From NCBI GenBank assembly GCA_030765235.1, contig JAVCCW010000029.1, forward strand, positions 140,939-204,938: 64,000 nt of DNA, in the 5' to 3' direction. Made by a program: the position numbers and the translations under genes. Positions 8,578 through 35,825 of the stretch are shown in pieces. Numbering within the stretch: position 1 is the stretch's first letter; each line of letters starts with the position of its first letter. The DNA comes from Candidatus Gorgyraea atricola (GTDB lineage Bacteria > Omnitrophota > Gorgyraeia > Gorgyraeales > Gorgyraeaceae). The notes below the pieces were generated by a model, which worked only from the letters and a program-made list of their open reading frames with translations, made no database searches and was not told the origin of the DNA.

Positions 8578-9063
8578 ATGAAAAAGATAAAGCTACCTTT
8601 AACAAAAGCTGTTATAAAAAAACTGAAGCCTGGGGAGTGGGTCTTGTTGAATGGACCTCTTCTGACTGCTCGTGACGCGGCGCATAAAAGAATGGTTGAG
8701 GCAAAGAGATCGCCTGTTTCAATTAAAGACGAGACCATCTATTATACTGGGCCTACGCCTGCGAGAAAAGGCCAGGTTATTGGTTCTTGCGGCCCGACTA
8801 CAAGCGCGAGGATGGATGTATTTACACCTGCATTGTTAAAGCAAGGCCTTCTTGGCATAATTGGAAAAGGCGAGAGGTCAAAAGATGTAGGCCGGGCAAT
8901 AAAAAAATCTGGCGCAGTATATTTTATTACAATTGGCGGTGCTGGCGCGTATTTATCTGAAAAAGTGTGTTCGAGCAAAGTCGTAGCATATAAAGATCTC
9001 GGTACAGAAGCGATCCGTAGGTTAATAGTAAAAGATTTCCCGGCAATAGTAGCTATTAAATAA
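8578..9063 (+). CDS. Class I fumarate hydratase / tartrate dehydratase beta subunit
   Basis: [12 protein letters not shown]...GPTTSARMD is typical of the beta subunit. Confidence 0.75.
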
Positions 9064-9766: not shown

Positions 9767-10371
9767 TGGAGATCGTTGTAGCCACGAGGAATCAGGATAA
9801 GCTCGAGGAAATAAAGGCGCTTCTAAAAGGCCTGCGCATAAAGGTCGTATCTCTGAATAACTTTAAGGGTGTTCCAGAAGTAATAGAGGATGGCAAGATT
9901 CTGGAGGCCAATGCAAAGAAAAAGGCAGTACAGGTCTCACGTTATTTGAAAAAATTGGCAGTAGCAGATGATTCTGGGTTAGAGGTCCTGGCCCTTAGGA
10001 ACAAGCCAGGTGTGTACTCTGCGCGTTTCTCAGGTAAAGGCGCTACGTATAGCAGCAATAATCAAAAGGTCTTGAGGTTGCTTAGAGATGTGCCTGCTGC
10101 GAAGAGAAAGGCATGTTTTAGATGCGTGGTAGCTGTTGCTGATAGAGGAAAGATAGTTGGCACAGTAGAAGGTAAGTGCAAAGGCAAGATAGGGTTTGAG
10201 CCAAGGGGTAAGGCCGGATTCGGATATGACCCTGTTTTTATACCCGAGGATCACAAAAAGACCTTTGCGGAAATAGGCATACGCAGGAAAAACAAGATAA
10301 GCCATAGAAGCAAGGCCCTGGTAAAGGCAAAGAAGGTTATAAAAAGATACGTTTTGACCCGTTCGACTTAG
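9763..10371 (+). CDS. rdgB: dITP/XTP pyrophosphatase (RdgB/Ham1 family)
   Basis: [19 protein letters not shown]...ADDSGLEV..L...[10 protein letters not shown], and the conserved rph-rdgB pair. Confidence 0.85.
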
Positions 10372-10376
10372 CTCAG

Positions 10377-10437
10377 GGTCAACCCTGAGCAAGCGAGCTC
10401 GCAAGCTTAATTAGTGCGAGCGCGTCGAAGGGTTGAC
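10377..10437. repeat. GC-rich hairpin repeat (family E): CCTGAGCAAGCGAGCTCGCAAGCTTAATTAGTGCGAGCGCGTCGAAGGG flanked by GTCAACCCT/AGGGTTGAC
   Basis: Sits right after the rdgB stop. A near-identical ~50-nt motif recurs at about 12323-12373. Internal stem GCTCGCA...TGCGAGC. Confidence 0.7.
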
Positions 10438-10486: not shown

Positions 10487-10540
10487 GGCGTGCCCCGTTC
10501 CATTTTTTCAATGAAATTGAAAAAATGGAACGGGGCATGG
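10487..10540. repeat. Mini inverted repeat built from family-A terminal sequence, abutting and overlapping the tRNA-Pro 5' end
   Basis: GGCGTGCCCCGTTCCATTTTTT-caatgaaattg-AAAAAATGGAACGGGGCATGG. The right arm runs into the tRNA-Pro acceptor stem CGGGGCA. Confidence 0.6.
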
Positions 10541-10608
10541 CTCAGTTTGGCTAGAGCACCTGCTTTGGGAGCAGGGGGTCGCTGGTTCGAGTCCAGCTGC
10601 CCCGACCA
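10531..10608 (+). tRNA. tRNA-Pro (anticodon TGG)
   Basis: Acceptor CGGGGCA/TGCCCCG, anticodon loop TTTGGGA, T-loop GGTTCGAGTCC, CCA encoded. Manually folded. Confidence 0.75.
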
Positions 10609-10610
10609 CT

Positions 10611-10687
10611 GTCCCTGTAGCTCAGATGGATAGAGCATTTGCCTTCTAAGCAAAGGGTCGCCTGTTCGAATCAGGCCAGGGACGCCA
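10611..10687 (+). tRNA. tRNA-Arg (anticodon TCT)
   Basis: Acceptor GTCCCTG/CAGGGAC, D-arm TAGCTCAGATGGATAGAGC, anticodon loop CTTCTAA, T-arm GCCTGTTCGAATCAGGC, CCA encoded. Confidence 0.75.
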
Positions 10688-10870
10688 CCCTACGCTCACA
10701 TGTGGCGATACTTCGCAGCAAGCTTCGGGTGGTAAACCACTTGACTTTAAAGCATGCTTGTCCTCCGAAGCATACTACAGAGATTGGCTATATTTGAGCG
10801 TAGGAGGACTTCGGGTGGCAAAGCCATCCATAACATGCTACTGTGAATAGCTATATGTGAGTGACGGGTG
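10688..10870. repeat. tRNA-trailer repeat block (family B), units bounded by CCTACGCTCACATG (or its reverse complement CATGTGAGCGTAGG)
   Basis: Shares long stretches (GCATGCTACGGGTGGCAAGCCA..., CGAAGCATACTACAGAGATTGGC..., GAGCGTAGGAGG) with the blocks at 17039-17215 and 17326-17443, which also follow tRNA genes. Confidence 0.7.
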
Positions 10871-15207: not shown

Positions 15208-16212
15208 ATGCAAAAGAAAAATATCAAGAATTTTACAATTGAAGAATTAAAGGAAGAACTGGGCAAGCTCTCAGAGGCATCTTACAGGGCGAATCAGCTT
15301 TTTGAGTGGATATATAAGAAAGGCGCGCGCAGTTTTGATGAGATGGGTAATCTGCCGAAATCTTTCAGGGATAAACTTGGTAGAGTTTTTTGCCTGGGAG
15401 GTGTTAAGCTAAAGGAGAGGCTTAAATCCAGGGATGGCACTGAGAAGTTTTTGTTTGAATTAGAGGACGGTGGTCTTATAGAGAGCGTACTTATACCAAG
15501 CAGCTCAAGAAAAACGATCTGCCTTTCCACGCAGGTCGGATGTAAATTTGGGTGTGCGTTTTGCGCAAGCGGCCTCAAAGGATTCAAGAGAGACCTTTTT
15601 CCGTCAGAGATCCTTGACCAGATTATTCTTGTGGGCGGTGAGATAACAAATTTTGTGTTTATGGGCATGGGCGAGCCGCTGGATAATTTTGAGAATCTGA
15701 AAAGAGTGATCGAGATAATGAATTCTCCATTAGGTCTGGGTATCGGCGCCAGGAGAATAACTGTTTCAACGTGCGGGATAATACCCGGGATCAGGAGATT
15801 TAAGGAAATAGATCTTCAAGTAAATCTCTCGATATCTCTTCACGCTGCCAATAATAAACTTCGAAGTAGTCTGATGTCTATCAATAAAAAGTATCCTTTG
15901 GAAGAGTTGATAGCAGCATGTAATGATTTTTCAGGAAGGATGATCACGCTCGAATATATATTAATCAAGGATAAGAATGATTCACTAAGGGACGCAAATG
16001 AACTTTCTCACATAGCTAAAAAAATAAAGGCCAAGATAAATCTCATTCCTTATAGTCCTGTGTCTGGGAAGAGATTCAAGGTGCCCACTGGGAAAGATAT
16101 TGAGCTATTTCAGAAGAGACTGGTCAAAAACAGCGTGAATGTAACTCTTCGCGAGTCAAAAGGTAAAGACATCTTTGCTGCCTGCGGCCAGCTGGCAATG
16201 AAAAATAGTTGA
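15208..16212 (+). CDS. rlmN: 23S rRNA m2A2503 / tRNA m2A37 methyltransferase RlmN (radical SAM)
   Basis: ANQLFEWIY, the CxxxCxxC cluster (CKFGCAFCASG), GMGEPL, and a C-terminal Cys (FAACGQL). Confidence 0.85.
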   Translation: MQKKNIKNFTIEELKEELGKLSEASYRANQLFEWIYKKGARSFDEMGNLPKSFRDKLGRVFCLGGVKLKERLKSRDGTEKFLFELEDGGLIESVLIPSSSRKTICLSTQVGCKFGCAFCASGLKGFKRDLFPSEILDQIILVGGEITNFVFMGMGEPLDNFENLKRVIEIMNSPLGLGIGARRITVSTCGIIPGIRRFKEIDLQVNLSISLHAANNKLRSSLMSINKKYPLEELIAACNDFSGRMITLEYILIKDKNDSLRDANELSHIAKKIKAKINLIPYSPVSGKRFKVPTGKDIELFQKRLVKNSVNVTLRESKGKDIFAACGQLAMKNS

Positions 16213-16243
16213 AAGAATCTGACCCTCTTTTTGTGTCTATTAT

Positions 16244-16277
16244 AATAGTAGCCCAGGTTTAAACCTGGGTTACTATT
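16244..16277. repeat. Family-D PmeI-core palindrome (AATAGTAGCCCAGGTTTAAACCTGGGTTACTATT)
   Basis: Seen directly, one mismatch in the arms. Lies between rlmN and radC. Confidence 0.85.
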
Positions 16278-16296
16278 AAAAAAAGGGGGTTTTATT

Positions 16297-16971
16297 ATGG
16301 CTATAGATAGCTGGCCTAAAGATGAAAGGCCAAGGGAGAGGCTTTTTAAGCACGGAGAGCACACGCTGAATAGTTCAGAGCTTCTGGCGATATTGTTTGG
16401 ACAAGGGTCAGAAGGCAAGAGCGCAGTGGAATTAGGGAGCGAACTCATAACGCATTTTAAGACATTTCGCAATATGAGTCATACTGATATTGTTCAGTTG
16501 CAGGGTTTCAAAGGCATGGGCAGGGCAAAGATCGCCAGGCTTAGAGCAACATTTGAGATAGCCAGGAGATTTATGAGCGAGGAAAAACAGCCTGGATACA
16601 GGGTCAGATCGCCAAGAGAGGTAGCTGATTTTTTAATGCCAAGGTTAAGGGACCTAAAAAAGGAGATATTTAAAATATTGCTTCTAGATGGCAAAAATAA
16701 TATAATAGATATACTTGAGGTAGAGGAAGGTTCGGTTGATCGGGCAGCGCCTCAGATCAGGGAGGTAATGGTAAAGGCGCTCCAGAATTTTGCCACAAGC
16801 ATTATTGCGGTACATAATCATCCATCTGGAGACCCTGAGCCGAGTGAAGAGGATGTCTTGTTTACTGAGAATCTTAAGGCAGCAGGTGAAGTGCTTCAGC
16901 TGAACGTGCTGGATCATATTATAATAGGAGACAATAGGTTTTATAGTTTCACTGACGAAAAGCGCCTATAG
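16297..16971 (+). CDS. radC: RadC-like JAB-domain protein (UPF0758)
   Basis: HNHPSGDPEPSEEDVLFTENL JAMM motif and the N-terminal helix-hairpin-helix region. Its 3' end overlaps the first 10 nt of the downstream tRNA. Confidence 0.85.
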   Translation: MAIDSWPKDERPRERLFKHGEHTLNSSELLAILFGQGSEGKSAVELGSELITHFKTFRNMSHTDIVQLQGFKGMGRAKIARLRATFEIARRFMSEEKQPGYRVRSPREVADFLMPRLRDLKKEIFKILLLDGKNNIIDILEVEEGSVDRAAPQIREVMVKALQNFATSIIAVHNHPSGDPEPSEEDVLFTENLKAAGEVLQLNVLDHIIIGDNRFYSFTDEKRL

Positions 16972-17038
16972 CTCAATCGGATAGAGTGGCTGGCTTCGAA
17001 CCAGTAGGTTGGAGGTTCAAATCCTCCTAGGCGCGCCA
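16962..17038 (+). tRNA. tRNA-Arg (anticodon TCG by manual folding)
   Basis: Acceptor GCGCCTA/TAGGCGC, anticodon stem GCTGG/CCAGT with loop CTTCGAA, T-arm GGAGGTTCAAATCCTCC, CCA encoded. Confidence 0.65.
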
Positions 17039-17215
17039 CCCTACGTTCACATGGGGTTAATCTTCGTAGCATACTACGGATGGCAAGCCACCTTTAGTCT
17101 TCGAAGCATGCTACAGAGATTAGCAACGCATGAGCGTAGGAGACCTTTGCTCAAATATAGCGATTCTTCGTAGCATGCTACGGGTGGCAAGCCATTTGTG
17201 TGTTGACTACATATC
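17039..17215. repeat. Family-B tRNA-trailer repeat block (two units)
   Basis: CCCTACGTTCACATGGGG...CTTCGTAGCATACTACGGATGGCAAGCCACC...CATGAGCGTAGGAG...GATTCTTCGTAGCATGCTACGGGTGGCAAGCCA. Shares its ends and internal segments with 10688-10870 and 17326-17443. Confidence 0.7.
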
Positions 17216-17249
17216 TGTTCTATGATATATTACTGAAACTTGGGTAGTC

Positions 17250-17325
17250 GCCCCCATAGCTCAGCTGGTAGAGCAGATCACTCTTAATGATAAGGTCACA
17301 GGTTCGAGCCCTGTTGGGGGTACCA
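17250..17325 (+). tRNA. tRNA-Lys (anticodon CTT)
   Basis: Acceptor GCCCCCA/TGGGGGT, D-arm TAGCTCAGCTGGTAGAGC, anticodon loop CTCTTAA, T-arm ACAGGTTCGAGCCCTGT, CCA encoded. Confidence 0.7.
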
Positions 17326-17443
17326 TCCTACGCTCACATAGAGCGATTCTTCGTAGCATGCTACGGGTGGCAAGCCACCTAATTTTAAAAAGGGCTTGCC
17401 CGCCGAAGCAAACTTCGAAGATTAGCAGCACATGAGCGTAGGC
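17326..17443. repeat. Family-B tRNA-trailer repeat (one unit)
   Basis: TCCTACGCTCACATAGAGCGATTCTTCGTAGCATGCTACGGGTGGCAAGCCACC...CACATGAGCGTAGGCGGG. Confidence 0.7.
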
Positions 17444-17528
17444 GGGCGGATGGTGAAACTGGCAGACACGCTAGCCTTAGGAGCTAGTGGAGCAATCCAT
17501 GGAGGTTCGACTCCTCTTCCGCCCACCA
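17444..17528 (+). tRNA. tRNA-Leu (anticodon TAG), long variable arm
   Basis: Acceptor GGGCGGA/TCCGCCC, anticodon loop CTTAGGA, extra arm, T-arm GGAGGTTCGACTCCTCT, CCA encoded. Confidence 0.7.
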
Positions 17529-17610
17529 AATCCGCCGAAGGCGGATTTGATCCTGAGCGAGCGTAATGAGGCAACGAATAGGAGCCTCATAGCGAAGTGA
17601 AGGACCTTTG
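17529..17610 (+). ncRNA. tRNA-trailer two-hairpin structured element (copy 1)
   Basis: AAATCCGCC-GAAG-GCGGATTT, then GATCCTGAG, then TGAGGC-AACGAATAGGA-GCCTCA. The paralogous copy after tRNA-Gly keeps the loops but changes both stems compensatorily. Confidence 0.5.
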
Positions 17611-17710
17611 ACAAAGTGAATGAGTAGAATTTGTCCCTCAGTGCCTACAATGCTCCTGCTCGTCGCATTGTTTAACGGCACTTCGGGATGAAATTTACTT
17701 CGTAAATTTC

Positions 17711-17785
17711 GCGGGAGTAGCTCAGTGGTAGAGCTTTTCGTTGCCAACGAAAAGGTCGCGGGTTCGAGCCCCGTCTCCCGCTCCA
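17711..17785 (+). tRNA. tRNA-Gly (anticodon GCC)
   Basis: Acceptor GCGGGAG/CTCCCGC, anticodon loop TTGCCAA, T-arm GCGGGTTCGAGCCCCGT, CCA encoded. Confidence 0.75.
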
Positions 17786-17845
17786 ATTTCGCCGAAGGCG
17801 AAATTGATCCTGAGGATGTGACGAATAGGAACATCCGAAGGATCT
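17786..17845 (+). ncRNA. tRNA-trailer two-hairpin structured element (copy 2)
   Basis: AATTTCGCC-GAAG-GCGAAATT, then GATCCTGAG, then GATGTG-ACGAATAGGA-ACATC. Same architecture and loop sequences as copy 1 with covarying stems. Confidence 0.5.
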
Positions 17846-17883
17846 AAATATTTTTACGCAGTCTAAAACAGGAGGATACACAC

Positions 17884-18354
17884 GTGAAGATTCTTGATTT
17901 TTTGAACGAAAAGGCAATTTCGGCAAATCTGAAGTCACAGAACAAAAAAGGAGTCATACAGGAACTCACTGATTCATTGATCAAAGCAGGGGAATTGAAA
18001 CCCCGGATGAAGGACCCAGTAGTCAAGGTACTCCTCAACAGGGAGGCGCTTGGTTCAACAGGCATTGGCCAGGGTGTCGCTATCCCGCACGGCAAATGCG
18101 AATATACGAAGGAACTCGTAGGCGCTTTTGGCGTATCGAAACAGGGTATAAATTTCGATTCTCTTGATGGAGAGCCAGCGTATATATTTTTCCTTTTACT
18201 CGCCCCCATAGAATCATCCGGTCCTCACCTCAAGGCACTCGCCCGCATATCAAAGTTACTAAAAGACAAATATTTTAGAGATTCGTTAAAGAAAGCAGAA
18301 AACGAAAAGGCTCTACTTAAGATCATAAAAGAAGAAGATCAGAGAAGATCATAA
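17884..18354 (+). CDS. ptsN: PTS IIA-Ntr-type regulatory protein (PtsN family, EIIA fructose/mannitol type)
   Basis: GTG start. GIGQGVAIPHGK carries the active-site His motif of EIIA(Ntr)/Fru. ptsH and ptsI lie downstream. Confidence 0.8.
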   Translation: MKILDFLNEKAISANLKSQNKKGVIQELTDSLIKAGELKPRMKDPVVKVLLNREALGSTGIGQGVAIPHGKCEYTKELVGAFGVSKQGINFDSLDGEPAYIFFLLLAPIESSGPHLKALARISKLLKDKYFRDSLKKAENEKALLKIIKEEDQRRS

Positions 18355-18357
18355 AAT

Positions 18358-19602
18358 ATGCGTAGATTAAAGTGGCTATTACCTGGGATGAAGGTAAAGC
18401 GCTGGATCATTACATGCAGTATAGGTGTAGCCCTTGTTGCAATAGGGTCTATCGTATTGATCGCTGGAAAATTTCCTGGCTCGCATGGACTTGGCATATC
18501 TGTTATCGTCCTTGGATCCTTAGTGATCATATACGGGATAAAGAGGATGGTGAAATCCTTCATCAAGGTGTTTTTACCCCAGGTAAAAGAAGGCGAGCTT
18601 GTAAATATAGTATACCATCATCGCCAGCTTGAAAAAGGCCCTAAGATAGTAGTGATCGGAGGAGGGACAGGCCTGTCAGTGCTTCTTCATGGGTTAAAAG
18701 AGCTCTCCAGCAATATCACAGCGATAGTGACTGTTGCTGATGATGGCGGCTCTTCTGGAAGACTGAGGGAACAGTTCGATATACTTCCTCCAGGCGATAT
18801 ACGAAATTGTCTTGTAGCGCTCGCAGACGCAGAGCCGCTGATGAGGGATCTGTTCCAGTTTAGATTCGGCAATGAGTCAGAATTGGCTGGCCACAGTTTT
18901 GGCAATCTGTTTATCACCGCGCTTTCCAAGGTTACAGGTGATTTTGAAAAGGCAATAAAAGAGTCAAGTAAGGTGCTTGCCATACGGGGAAGGGTCATAC
19001 CTTCTACGTTTGACAAGGTCCAGCTTGTCGCAGAGCATCAGAACGGCCAAAAGACAAAAGGTGAGACAAAGATAGTAGAGCAATCAAGTCCCATAAGAAG
19101 GGTTTTTCTGGACCCTGTGAATTGCAGGCCCAGCAAGGAATCTTTCGAGGCCATAGATGACGCAGATATAATAATCCTTGGCCCGGGCAGTTTATATACC
19201 AGCGTAATCCCAAATCTTTTAGTGACTGGCATTGCCGACAGGGCTGCCCTGTCACCAGCGCCTAAGGTCTACGTGTGCAATGTAATGACTCAGCCAGGGG
19301 AAACAGATAATTATACAGCATTCGGTCATTTAAACACTATTATTTCGCATACCAGGCCAGATATTGTAAATAGCTGCATAGTAAATACAGGGACTGTTCC
19401 TTCGGAGCTGCTTAAAAAATATGAAGAAGAGAACGCATATCCTGTACTGGCTGATTCTGACAGGATCATTGAAAAAGGATATAGTGTGATTGAAGAGGAT
19501 ATTATAAATACTAAGGATTATGTAAGGCATGATCCAAAGAAACTTTCAAAGATTATCATAGACCTTGCCCTAAAGGCAAAGGCAGCAGCCAATAAACAGT
19601 GA
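18358..19602 (+). CDS. YvcK/UPF0052 gluconeogenesis-factor family protein with an N-terminal two-helix membrane anchor
   Basis: IVVIGGGTGLSVLLHGLK...TVADDGGSSGRLR..F.ILPPGDIRNCLVALA is the CofD/YvcK signature. The first ~70 aa are hydrophobic. Confidence 0.8.
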   Translation: MRRLKWLLPGMKVKRWIITCSIGVALVAIGSIVLIAGKFPGSHGLGISVIVLGSLVIIYGIKRMVKSFIKVFLPQVKEGELVNIVYHHRQLEKGPKIVVIGGGTGLSVLLHGLKELSSNITAIVTVADDGGSSGRLREQFDILPPGDIRNCLVALADAEPLMRDLFQFRFGNESELAGHSFGNLFITALSKVTGDFEKAIKESSKVLAIRGRVIPSTFDKVQLVAEHQNGQKTKGETKIVEQSSPIRRVFLDPVNCRPSKESFEAIDDADIIILGPGSLYTSVIPNLLVTGIADRAALSPAPKVYVCNVMTQPGETDNYTAFGHLNTIISHTRPDIVNSCIVNTGTVPSELLKKYEEENAYPVLADSDRIIEKGYSVIEEDIINTKDYVRHDPKKLSKIIIDLALKAKAAANKQ

Positions 19603-33687: not shown

Positions 33688-34532
33688 TATTTTTAGTAGG
33701 ACCTACCGCATCAGGTAAGACCAAGGTTTCCCTTAAATTAGCCAAAAAGCTCAACGCAGAGATAGTGTCCTGTGATTCCATGTGCGTATATAAAGGTATG
33801 GATATTCTTACTTCTAAGCCGAGTAAGAGCGACAGGCGAAAGGTAAAACATCATCTAATAGATATCATCCCTCCTACTAAAGAATTTAGCGTGTCTGAAT
33901 ATAGAAGATTGGCGATTGCTGCAATAGAAGATATATTTAAGCGCGGCAAGACTCCATTGTTTGTAGGAGGCAGTGGTTTATATGTTAAGGCTATGGTCGA
34001 CGGGTTATTTACTTCAGCAGGAAAGGACGAGAAATTTAGAAAGGCTCAGTATGTCCTGGCAGGGAAATATGGCAATAAGTATCTTTACAATAAGCTAAAA
34101 AAGGTAGATTCAGAGAGGGCTAAGAAGATACACCTGAATGACCTGAGAAGGATAGTAAGGGCGCTGGAGATCTATCGCACTGAGAAGAGGCGGCCATCTG
34201 AATTATTGAAGAAGAGAGAAGCGCTGGGTTATTCTTTTAAGATCTTTGGTATAGACAGGCCCCGTGAAGAACTCTATAAAAATATAGACGAACGGGTAGA
34301 AGATATGTTCAGGCAGGGCATAGTAAAAGAGGTAAGAAATCTATCTCGCAGGAAATTGAGCCTTACGGCAAAAAAGGCTTTAGGGTATAATGAGGTAATG
34401 GGGTATATTAAAGGAGATCTTTCACTTGGCCAAGCAAAGGAGCTTTTAAAGAAGAACACAAGGCATTTTGCCAAGCGCCAACTAACCTGGTTCCGTCCAG
34501 ACAAGCGCATCCAATGGAAAAGGCTATACTAG
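33678..34532 (+). CDS. miaA: tRNA dimethylallyltransferase
   Basis: VGPTASGKT P-loop and DSMCVYKGMDILTSKP. Confidence 0.9.
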   Translation: MQVIFLVGPTASGKTKVSLKLAKKLNAEIVSCDSMCVYKGMDILTSKPSKSDRRKVKHHLIDIIPPTKEFSVSEYRRLAIAAIEDIFKRGKTPLFVGGSGLYVKAMVDGLFTSAGKDEKFRKAQYVLAGKYGNKYLYNKLKKVDSERAKKIHLNDLRRIVRALEIYRTEKRRPSELLKKREALGYSFKIFGIDRPREELYKNIDERVEDMFRQGIVKEVRNLSRRKLSLTAKKALGYNEVMGYIKGDLSLGQAKELLKKNTRHFAKRQLTWFRPDKRIQWKRLY

Positions 34533-35749
34533 TAACAGTTGATTTGAAGAAAGAAAAAGGGTGGTCGGCAGAGGATCGCGCTAACGAGCTCAAAGAGCTT
34601 GCGTGTTCGAGTGGCGCGTCTATAGAGGCAGAGATCGTATGTCATAGAGAGAGGCCCACGCCTGATCTATTTATTGGCAAAGGTAAGTTCGAAGAAATAG
34701 CTTTGCTTTCAAAGAAGAAGAGCGCGAAATCAGTTATTTTTAATAATGACCTTACGCCTACGCAGCTCAGGAATTTAGAAAAAGGGCTTGATGGCATCAA
34801 AGTCATTGACAGGACCCAGCTCATACTTGACATATTTTCCCAGCATGCAAGGAGCATGGAGGGCAAGGTCCAGGTAGAGCTGGCACAGTTACAATATTTA
34901 TTGCCAAGGCTTACTGGCAAGGGCATTGAGCTTTCAAGGCTTGGCGGTGGTATTGGTACGCGCGGCCCAGGAGAAAAAATACTTGAGCATGACAGGCGAA
35001 GGATCGGGGATCGCATTGCAAGGCTAAAGAAAGAATTAAAGGACTTAGAGAAAAGGCGTCATGCCTTACGGAAAAGGCGCAAGGACGCTATGCTTGCCAC
35101 TGTTTCAATCGTGGGCTATACCAACGCAGGCAAGACCACTCTTTTAAACCACCTCACCAACTCCAGAAAATTAACTGCTGACAAACTTTTTAGCACACTT
35201 GATCCTATAGCAAGGAGTTATGTGCTTCCGAATAACCTGAAGATCCTGTTTAGTGATACAGTAGGGTTTTTGTATAAACTTCCGCATCATCTTATAGAGT
35301 CGTTCAAGGCTACGCTGGAAGAGGTCAAGGAGGCAGATCTACTGATACACGTGCTTGACTGTTCGAATCCTCGCGTTCAAGAGCTGAATGAGGCAGTGTA
35401 TAGTGTATTAAAGGAGTTAGGAGCAGAAGGCAAGACTATAATCAATGTGCTCAACAAGGTCGATCTGGTAGAGAATGGGTATCATTTGGACCGCATTAAA
35501 AGTAAATTCAGAGACCCAGTATTAGTTTCTGCATTACGTGGGCATGGCATAGAGGATCTCATAAGCGAAATTTCAAATCTCTTGTCAAACCTTGTCACAA
35601 AGGTAAAAATCGAGATCCCGAACAATAGGATGGACAAGGTGAATTTGATCTACGAACACGGCAAGGTCCATAAAAGAGAGGACAGGCCTACCTCGGTTTA
35701 TATAGAAGCCATAATACCTTTAAGACTAAAGAATCAGCTCAAATTTTAG
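34514..35749 (+). CDS. hflX: GTPase HflX
   Basis: The HflX N-domain (LVTVD..) and the G-domain VSIVGYTNAGKTTLLN, DTVGF, NKVD. Confidence 0.9.
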   Translation: MEKAILVTVDLKKEKGWSAEDRANELKELACSSGASIEAEIVCHRERPTPDLFIGKGKFEEIALLSKKKSAKSVIFNNDLTPTQLRNLEKGLDGIKVIDRTQLILDIFSQHARSMEGKVQVELAQLQYLLPRLTGKGIELSRLGGGIGTRGPGEKILEHDRRRIGDRIARLKKELKDLEKRRHALRKRRKDAMLATVSIVGYTNAGKTTLLNHLTNSRKLTADKLFSTLDPIARSYVLPNNLKILFSDTVGFLYKLPHHLIESFKATLEEVKEADLLIHVLDCSNPRVQELNEAVYSVLKELGAEGKTIINVLNKVDLVENGYHLDRIKSKFRDPVLVSALRGHGIEDLISEISNLLSNLVTKVKIEIPNNRMDKVNLIYEHGKVHKREDRPTSVYIEAIIPLRLKNQLKF

Positions 35750-35785
35750 AATAAGATCCTTCGTCCGCCTGCGGCAGACTCAGGA

Positions 35786-35825
35786 TCAATAAAAATCTGC
35801 TAAAAATTTAGCAGATTTTTATTGA
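35786..35825. terminator. 40-bp perfect palindrome TCAATAAAAATCTGCTAAAAATTTAGCAGATTTTTATTGA (terminator-like, after hflX)
   Basis: Seen directly. AT-rich stem with T-runs on both sides. Confidence 0.55.

Follow-up and report, generated by a model that had tools for sequence, protein, structure and literature searches.

The window analysed here is a stretch of 64,000 nucleotides from Candidatus Gorgyraea atricola, a member of the Omnitrophota (assembly GCA_030765235.1, contig JAVCCW010000029.1), in which a small two-hairpin element lies behind the tRNA-Leu(tag) gene and again behind the tRNA-Gly(gcc) gene, among housekeeping genes such as rlmN, radC, ptsN, a CofD/YvcK-like gene and those for HPr and PtsI. 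The original prediction, made from the letters alone, had described this element as a conserved tRNA-trailer motif with compensatory stem changes. ARAGORN, folding and a covariance model (CM), R1, agree that the same architecture, a first hairpin (H1) followed by a second one (H2), is present at both places (Table 1). R1 was built on 26 genomic copies of the element, and the window was scanned with filters off.

The elements at the tRNA-Leu and tRNA-Gly genes

In both copies H1 has a 10-bp stem and begins at C75 of the tRNA, sharing the CA of its CCA end. The H1 stems differ by two double changes (CAAATCCGCC/GGCGGATTTG in copy 1, CAATTTCGCC/GGCGAAATTG in copy 2), as had been claimed; the GAAG tetraloop assigned to this hairpin is in fact a GAA triloop closed by a C-G pair, given the very arms that were quoted. 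The letters said to be alike in loop and spacer, GATCCTGAG and ACGAATAGGA, are indeed the same in copies 1 and 2; exact matches to them number only three and two, respectively, in the 64-kb window. GATCCTGAG is no spacer, being the 5′ arm of H2: its GATCCT pairs with AGGATC in copy 2 and with AGGACC in copy 1, and its GA stands opposite another GA.

H2 thus follows a plan of its own, with an outer stem GAUCCU/AGGAYC, a tandem G.A/A.G (5′-Y-GA-R-3′), a variable inner stem, and an apex made of a second tandem G.A, a single C-G pair and a 5-nt loop. In the short form (copy 2), GATCCT/AGGATC at the base is followed by the tandem G17812.A17838/A17813.G17837, the pair G17814-C17836, the inner stem GATGT/ACATC, the second tandem G17820.A17830/A17821.G17829, the pair C17822-G17828 and the loop GAATA. 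In the long form (copy 1), the outer stem GATCCT/AGGACC contains one A.C, the tandem is G17555.A17600/A17556.G17599, and an additional internal module (GAGCGAGCG.../...GCGAAGTGAAGG), with GC/GU plus GAG/AA, is set below the inner stem ATGAGGC/GCCTCAT and the apex AA-C-GAATA-G-GA. Paired changes between the two H2 stems exist, as three double changes between (A)TGAGGC/GCCTCA(T) and GGATGT/ACATCC, but the arms GATGTG/ACATC quoted for copy 2 were wrong. By minimum free energy (MFE) both copies outfold their shuffles (z-scores in Table 1), none of 200 shuffles being as good.

R1 reveals two further copies in the window. The third, inverted and diverged, lies inside the interval of the original prediction, which does not mention it. 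Its H1, GAAATTTAC-GAA-GTAAATTTC, is flush with nucleotide +1 of tRNA-Gly and its loop is GACGAGCAGGAG; the outer stem has undergone a compensatory shift from CCT/AGG to CCC/GGG (TCCC/GGGA), with the tandem G.A retained. The element thus forms a tail-to-tail doublet in the spacer between tRNA-Leu and tRNA-Gly, and tRNA-Gly itself stands between inverted copies. In the fourth copy an AT-rich, terminator-like hairpin replaces H1 and is followed by ATTGATCCTGAG-TCTGCC-GCA-GGCGGA-CGAAGGATC, so that the frame is kept around a simple inner hairpin; this copy is antisense to a gene at 34514-35749 (+), whose stop codon is 4 nt away, and has an AT-rich terminator on its other side.

Table 1. Positions of the two-hairpin copies and of the tRNA genes that they adjoin in the window
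Feature	Position	Strand	Evidence and remarks
tRNA-Leu(tag)	17444..17528	+	ARAGORN; Rfam tRNA, 53.4 bits; C75-A76 are the first two bases of copy 1 H1
Copy 1, whole	17527-17608	+	H1 then H2, long form
Copy 1 H1	17527..17549	+	CAAATCCGCC-GAA-GGCGGATTTG; 10-bp stem, GAA triloop; inverted repeat I17, MFE fold, CM R1
Copy 1 H2 (long form)	17549..17608	+	Fold -38.7 kcal/mol, z -7.05; CM R1, 73.3 bits
Third copy, inverted, diverged	17630..17710	-	CM R1, 45.5 bits, E 1.3e-8
tRNA-Gly(gcc)	17711..17785	+	ARAGORN; Rfam tRNA; inverted copy on 5′ side, copy 2 on 3′ side
Copy 2, whole	17784-17846	+	H1 then H2, short form
Copy 2 H1	17784..17806	+	CAATTTCGCC-GAA-GGCGAAATTG; inverted repeat I21, fold, CM R1
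Copy 2 H2 (short form)	17806..17846	+	Fold -31.3 kcal/mol, z -7.17; CM R1, 89.8 bits
Fourth copy	35753..35824	-	CM R1, 35.3 bits

Family, fold and placement

The covariance-model scan that the original prediction had proposed recovered more than 100 copies with their pairing kept: 53 in genome loci and the window together, and 62 in 100 metagenome loci. R1 also gives 30-bit artefact matches on the complement of H1 plus a T arm, and the complement of H2 may, from a superficial likeness, be a tRNA-like minihelix. A strict pattern, TTGATCCTGAG-N4-18-ACGAATAGGA, was searched in the representative genomes of 185,579 species and matched 28 times. Twenty-six matches are true copies, at up to four per genome, in metagenome-assembled genomes (MAGs) named Candidatus Omnitrophota or "uncultured Planctomycetia"; the other two, in a Dehalococcoidia MAG and a Neomarinimicrobiota MAG, have no hairpin and fit our own estimate of about four chance matches. 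Rfam 15 returned only tRNA over positions 16000-19000 of the window at E <= 10; in 20 loci scanned at the gathering threshold, tRNA and RNase P were the only families to match. Viral contigs gave just three matches, probably chance or coding, and the element is thus not a phage feature. A full-text literature search for the core strings had no match, and keywords led only to general work on repetitive extragenic palindromes (REPs) and miniature inverted-repeat transposable elements (MITEs). The motif is a member of an apparently undescribed family of more than 100 small two-hairpin repeats that is essentially confined to the Omnitrophota (PVC).

A unit of this family measures about 60-85 nt and consists of H1, whose 9-10 bp stem is AT-rich with G and C at its top and whose loop is usually GAA, and of H2, in which the constant frame TTGATCCU-GA-G...C-GA-AGGAYC surrounds an interior that is freely variable and always paired; the family consensus reads CAAATTTGCCGAAGGCAAATTTGATCCTGAG...CGAAGGACC. 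The frame TTGATCCTGAG-N10-40-CGAAGGAYC was found at more than 120 metagenomic loci among the matches listed, with many different interiors. Those of the window type share the apical consensus GA-C-RAAYA-G-GA-G, whose C-G pair switches to G-C or U-A; the others comprise several hairpin types, often behind a real terminator-like hairpin with a T-run, and a few chance coding matches. Units are single, in tandem or in tail-to-tail doublets, the last of which occupy tRNA spacers in the window and in loci L001, L003, L016, L020 and L034 of the survey. The copies are intergenic or in variable regions of RNA genes, and the spacers that they fill, always with the same polarity, are very short.

The same frame, as TTGATCCTGAG-CGRCCGAAGGGAGT-CGAAGGATC, is also one module of a multi-hairpin repeat of about 170 nt, TTAATCAATGAGACTTAG...GGTAGTTCATT, which belongs to a related subfamily. 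This repeat was observed in metagenome Ga0164318 (L037, L046, L067, L068, L078, L085, L087, L093, L101, L103, L116 and L135) in many near-identical copies, some of them missing modules, and contigs start or stop in it.

Selection on the fold is supported by two alignments, with very strong covariation and 97-98% pairing. When 26 independent genomic copies are aligned with MAFFT, with no fitting to the structure, 97.0% of the cells pair, compared with 83.2% in shuffles, and none of 500 shuffles reaches the observed value; double changes occur in 13 of 24 pairs, and slid controls fall to 30-45%. In 62 metagenomic copies, which were aligned with the CM and are hence somewhat biased, all 21 modelled pairs covary, including the apical C-G and the outer stem, which is otherwise constant. 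The view that the structure itself has been selected is thereby backed by covariation, but the differences between copies 1 and 2, from which it had been drawn, are not compensatory evolution in situ: copy 1 is of the long subfamily and copy 2 of the short one.

The fold also distinguishes between the strands. On the strand that carries the tandem G.A, G.T outnumbers A.C in the modelled pairs by 46:18 (binomial p = 6e-4), and this strand outfolds its complement in 93 of 96 copies. The wobble bias stays with the same DNA strand and shows no visible dependence on transcription: copies whose G.A strand is sense have a ratio of 14:6 and antisense copies one of 11:7, counts that are too small to separate selection on RNA from selection on DNA. 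The fold advantage of the G.A strand is -6.7 kcal/mol in sense and -4.3 kcal/mol in antisense copies (p = 0.003), a comparison confounded by the mix of long and short subfamilies. The majority 3′ end GGACC makes an A.C on the G.A strand and a G.U on the complement, so that each strand has a non-canonical signature of its own.

The genomic context of 106 model hits was recorded from ARAGORN calls and a scan for open reading frames (ORFs). In 30 copies the start coincides with C75 of a tRNA read from the same strand (offset -1), and in 19 with nucleotide +1 of a tRNA on the opposite strand. Among the 106 hits there is no case of an H2 end directly adjoining a tRNA 3′ end; the hairpin turned towards the tRNA is always H1, whichever side the copy is on. 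The tRNAs concerned are of at least 15 identities. About 25 copies lie between co-directional protein genes of the opposite strand, with the H2 end 0-13 nt from the stop codon and the H1 end adjoining the reverse complement of the Shine-Dalgarno (SD) sequence, their G.A strand thus being the antisense of the mRNA. Most of the 5′ untranslated region of a tatA-like gene in L024 consists of the complement of an element. A diverged copy (10583-10647, +) is found even inside P12 of the bacterial class A RNase P RNA gene of L032 (10408-10819, -), where an insertion of about 65 nt with the outer stem ATCTT/AAGAT is the complement of a family member, antisense to that gene.

AT-rich hairpins that resemble H1 and have no H2 were also observed flush with tRNA 5′ or 3′ ends, in L024 (3040-3070, 3150-3180, 3340-3368 and 3440-3480) as well as in L032, L043 and L131. 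They end in ...TTTGG rather than in ...TTTGATCC, and are empty H1 sites or deletion derivatives.

Turnover and interpretation

Orthologous sites differ widely in what they hold. Contigs L003 and L016, both from genome CAZWYD01, are collinear with positions 16300-18350 of the window; identity is 92.4% for ptsN and 100% for the tRNAs, for H1 of copy 1 and for the segment 17596-17710, that is, spacer and minus-strand copy. Between identical frames, L016 has an unrelated hairpin in place of some 40 nt inside H2 of copy 1, with a duplicated 9-nt TGAAGGACC at the right junction, and copy 2 is wholly replaced, H1 and interior alike, by another family member. The spacers between tRNA-Arg and tRNA-Lys and between tRNA-Lys and tRNA-Leu are filled by family doublets in CAZWYD01 and by long CCTACG...CGTAGG hairpins in the window; in L040, tRNA-Lys and tRNA-Leu are adjacent with a 0-nt spacer. 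At 8850-8990 (minus-strand view), L040 carries a duplication of the last 20 nt of tRNA-Leu, GACTCCTCTTTCGCCCACCA, on either side of a mosaic insertion of about 125 nt, which holds an apical hairpin of the family type and a minimal CCCTGAGCGAAGCGAAGGG hairpin. L024 has CCA, a 63-nt element and 8 nt where L096 has CCA, 8 nt and tRNA-Leu; of nine possible positions, the element thus occupies the first. Between xseA and xseB, L010 has a filled spacer and L034 one of only 17 nt, possibly a relic. Units are thus gained, lost and exchanged far faster than their flanks diverge, and gene order around them is conserved between relatives. As to the tRNA genes themselves, the order in their cluster is Arg-Leu-Lys-Gly in L024 and Arg-Lys-Leu-Gly in the window, L016 and L040, a difference that suggests rearrangement among repeat-bracketed tRNAs.

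The number of copies, their presence in both orientations, the doublets, tandems and mosaics, the insertion in RNase P RNA, the empty sites and the fast replacement are better explained by a mobile repeat than by a trailer RNA. We put at about an even chance the reading that these elements form a new, modular family of double-hairpin repeats, similar to REPs and bacterial interspersed mosaic elements (BIMEs) and recognised as a folded single strand. The sheared G.A, the GNA triloop and the wobble bias, all features of one strand, suggest recognition of this kind, and DNA would be the simplest level that copies of either orientation have in common. The recognition surface would then consist of the tandem sheared G.A (Y-GA-R), the GNA triloop and the frame sequence on that single strand, and its reader would be a trans-acting nuclease, transposase or recombinase. 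Such an enzyme would copy or replace units, or interiors alone, at the boundaries of tRNAs and genes; only copies that fold would be propagated or kept, and covariation would result. Within tRNA precursors, RNase P and 3′ nucleases would meet the element as a structured leader or trailer to be removed, and it may act incidentally as an exonuclease barrier or folding insulator.

Several observations weigh against mobility of this kind. A phmmer search with IS200 TnpA and RAYT (YafM) sequences found no match in 3,493 ORF pieces from 836 kb of loci. Neither terminal inverted repeats nor a duplication of the target site was observed, the genes next to the copies in the window are of the housekeeping kind, and four copies in 64 kb look modest. 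Unpaired nucleotides are conserved across deep divergence. The minus-strand copy and spacer are fully conserved despite the 7.6% difference in ptsN, which fits purifying selection by the host as well as recent exchange, and in L016, L040 and the window alike some element is kept both before and after tRNA-Gly(gcc). That units lie exactly flush and with one polarity could reflect function and not target choice. For these reasons, namely placement and polarity, the conserved unpaired bases, the identical copy and the persistence at tRNA-Gly, a role at the RNA level, or a domesticated dual role as for REPs, keeps substantial probability. It is conceivable, though rather unlikely, that the Omnitrophota possess a dedicated system that reads the tandem-G.A double hairpin at the ends of stable RNAs and at gene starts, be it a pathway defining tRNA and mRNA ends or a recombination system for single-strand hairpins, akin in function to attC/IntI but outside integrons, by which interiors are swapped between frames that are otherwise identical.

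The original prediction had described a tRNA-trailer motif that could serve in processing or stability or as the seed of a small RNA. Generalised, this idea makes it a host-functional RNA whose hairpins are selected in the transcript as signals for tRNA-precursor processing, insulation or stability, with H1 setting the cleavage site or blocking exonucleases and the tandem-G.A H2 binding a protein. It would account for the strong covariation, the tandem G.A motifs and stable loops, the exact start of H1 at C75 and its exact end at nucleotide -1/+1, the element kept at the flanks of tRNA-Gly across relatives, the fully conserved minus-strand copy, the flush H1-like hairpins devoid of H2, and the fold advantage of the G.A strand, which is larger in sense copies (again confounded by subfamily). 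About half of the copies, however, have the G.A strand antisense to the transcript, as in tRNA 5′ leaders, operon spacers and P12 of RNase P RNA, and one protein could not read both RNAs. Orthologous sites can be empty or hold an unrelated hairpin family, the wobble bias is tied to the DNA strand independently of the direction of transcription, Rfam has no match, and a very stable hairpin that covers C75-A76 and ends at -1 would be expected to hinder RNase P and 3′ trimming. We regard this explanation as unlikely, if still one of weight; the earlier interpretation is supported in part, in that the fold is selected, but the element is not specific to trailers. The apical loop might conceivably pair in the SD/anti-SD manner (AGGAG/CUCCU). 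Two related ideas were rejected: pairing over a long range between leader and trailer around tRNA-Gly, where the flanking copies are too different and each folds locally, and a hammerhead-like CUGA...GAA, in which GAUCCU is paired. A kink-turn was rejected as well. The 5′-Y-GA-R-3′ tandem G.A between helices is shared with kink-turns and the apical GA-C-loop-G-GA resembles a K-loop, but a 3-nt bulge is missing, the GA/GA forms a symmetric 2x2 loop between Watson-Crick helices in all short-form copies, and half of the copies are transcribed as the complement.

Integron attC sites, too, work as folded single strands; they have a basal box that is conserved, an unpaired centre and a highly variable terminal structure. 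The element can be read in these terms, with the frame as R box, the tandem G.A as unpaired central spacer and the interior as the swapped variable terminal structure, and it would then be where a site-specific recombinase makes its crossover. The interior alone was swapped like a cassette between identical frames, with TGAAGGACC duplicated at the junction; terminal structures vary greatly in length within a constant frame; and the order of stop codon, element and SD sequence, with the structured strand antisense to the genes, resembles that of integron cassette arrays. Nevertheless, the GTTRRRY/RYYYAAC core (R′/R″) is absent from the consensus, a spot check of copy neighbours found no integrase, the element is strongly associated with tRNAs, tRNA genes and housekeeping operons are not cassettes, and genes around the elements keep their order in relatives, all of which makes an attC-like site improbable. 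A boundary element in duplex DNA, that is, a polar site or cruciform for a nucleoid or topology protein that brackets highly transcribed genes in mirror orientation, is slightly more improbable still. BIMEs bind gyrase and IHF, and the mirror-image arrangement around tRNAs and the placement at edges of transcription units beside a promoter would suit such a site; on the other hand, covariation means that pairing within a strand is conserved and not duplex sequence, the G.A/G.A and the wobble bias are features of single strands, and many copies lie within operons.

The possibility that the copies are ordinary intrinsic terminators, or chance similarities, is negligible. Copies do occur downstream of tRNAs, and hairpins with a T-run precede the frame in some of its relatives. 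The copies themselves lack a U-tract, ending in tails such as CTTT and CTAA, and drew no call in a terminator scan, so that the original prediction was right to set them apart from plain terminators. Sense copies are followed after only 7-16 nt by a co-directional ORF, or by another tRNA, with no promoter in between, as are doublets by tRNAs, and they can therefore not be efficient terminators. The terminator scan, this context, the strict-pattern census, with its 28 matches against about four expected and paired stems in the 26 true copies, and the covariation together refute this reading.

Among described repeats, the REP/BIME/REPIN elements of proteobacteria, which are mobilised by RAYTs, seem to offer the closest working likeness to the Omnitrophota family. 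They too are short, imperfect extragenic palindromes in many copies, with covarying stems, asymmetric mismatches that define orientation, doublets of alternating orientation, mosaic clusters, and fast gain and loss between strains. REPs carry a tag, an unpaired GTAG or CGTC tetranucleotide at one end (PMC3733652), which is absent from the consensus of the Omnitrophota element. The latter further differs in having two hairpins per unit, a constant tandem-G.A frame around an interchangeable interior, an H1 flush with tRNA ends in mirror orientation and copies beside gene 5′ ends, and it belongs to a different phylum. The Rickettsia palindromic and CGTC-tagged repeats are comparable in their insertion at tolerated sites of stable-RNA and protein genes, as in P12 of RNase P RNA, whereas they have the CGTC tag and in-frame protein insertions; the Omnitrophota element has no tag, and no copy within a protein gene was seen.

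The repetitive hairpin-forming elements (RHEs) of sponge mitochondria (PMC2800124) and the double-hairpin elements (DHEs) of Allomyces mitochondria are another comparison. Both are likewise hairpin or two-hairpin units of about 60-80 nt with conserved structure and compensatory changes. They are located in intergenic spacers, beside genes for tRNAs and others, and in the variable parts of structural RNAs, and their mobility is inferred from presence and absence in relatives, with no enzyme known. They are organellar and unrelated in sequence and are not known to have a tandem-G.A frame; the comparison is an analogy only. MITEs differ in their termini: the ends of the element, CAAATTT... and ...GAAGGACC, do not form an inverted repeat, and the filled and empty pairs L024/L096 and L010/L034 and the L040 junction show no MITE-type duplication at the element borders. 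The IS200/IS605-derived PATEs have subterminal hairpins at their ends, a fixed target tetra- or pentanucleotide, an orientation set by the replication strand and a TnpA in the genome. The four copies in the window alternate strands within 18 kb, which argues against such a replication-strand rule. The left flank of copies usually ends in C or CC, and TTGAT resembles the ISDra2 target.

Neighbouring features and significance

A near-consensus sigma-70 promoter with an extended -10 (TTGACT-17-TATATT, 17203-17231) lies upstream of tRNA-Lys and is conserved in L003 and L040. From its position, tRNA-Lys, tRNA-Leu, tRNA-Gly and probably ptsN would form one transcription unit that reads through the elements. 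It is the only good promoter of the region; TTGATC and the complement of H1 were considered as promoters and rejected, no -10 being found at proper spacing.

The window also contains a second repeat family, at 17040-17140, 17144-17194 (a half copy), 17327-17442 and 10689-10805. Its members are hairpins of about 100-118 nt, CCTACGCTCACAT...ATGAGCGTAGG with an internal CGTAGCATGCTACG; they are palindromes of the GTAG type, REPIN-like, with z about -7, and take up the room downstream of tRNA-Arg(tcg), tRNA-Lys and tRNA-Arg(tct), where they too directly adjoin the tRNA ends. In the close relative, spacers filled by this family in the window hold the double-hairpin family. At 10492-10536, a perfect 21-bp palindrome with a GAA loop (GCCCCGTTCCATTTTTTCAAT-GAA-ATTGAAAAAATGGAACGGGGC) would compete with the acceptor stem of tRNA-Pro, since its 3′ arm includes the first 6 nt of that tRNA. 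A hairpin of like style, GTCAACCCTGAGC...CGTCGAAGGGTTGAC, at 10355-10436 is followed by TTTTT and matches R1 weakly (12-14 bits); by its appearance it is a terminator-associated cousin of the frame.

The Omnitrophota are an uncultured phylum with many ultra-small cells, and the non-coding features of their genomes are essentially uncharted. Here a structured repeat is found throughout the phylum, flush at both ends of tRNAs, in the spacers from stop codon to SD sequence and even within RNase P RNA. It breaks assemblies and creates spurious ORFs; as the spacers that it occupies turn over faster than genes, it is also a ready marker of genome dynamics. Its constant frame around a freely exchangeable interior is unusual among bacterial repeats, and the repeat offers a handle on a putative enzyme that recognises hairpins. 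If instead its role in the host lies in RNA, the element would represent an unusual mode of defining tRNA ends.

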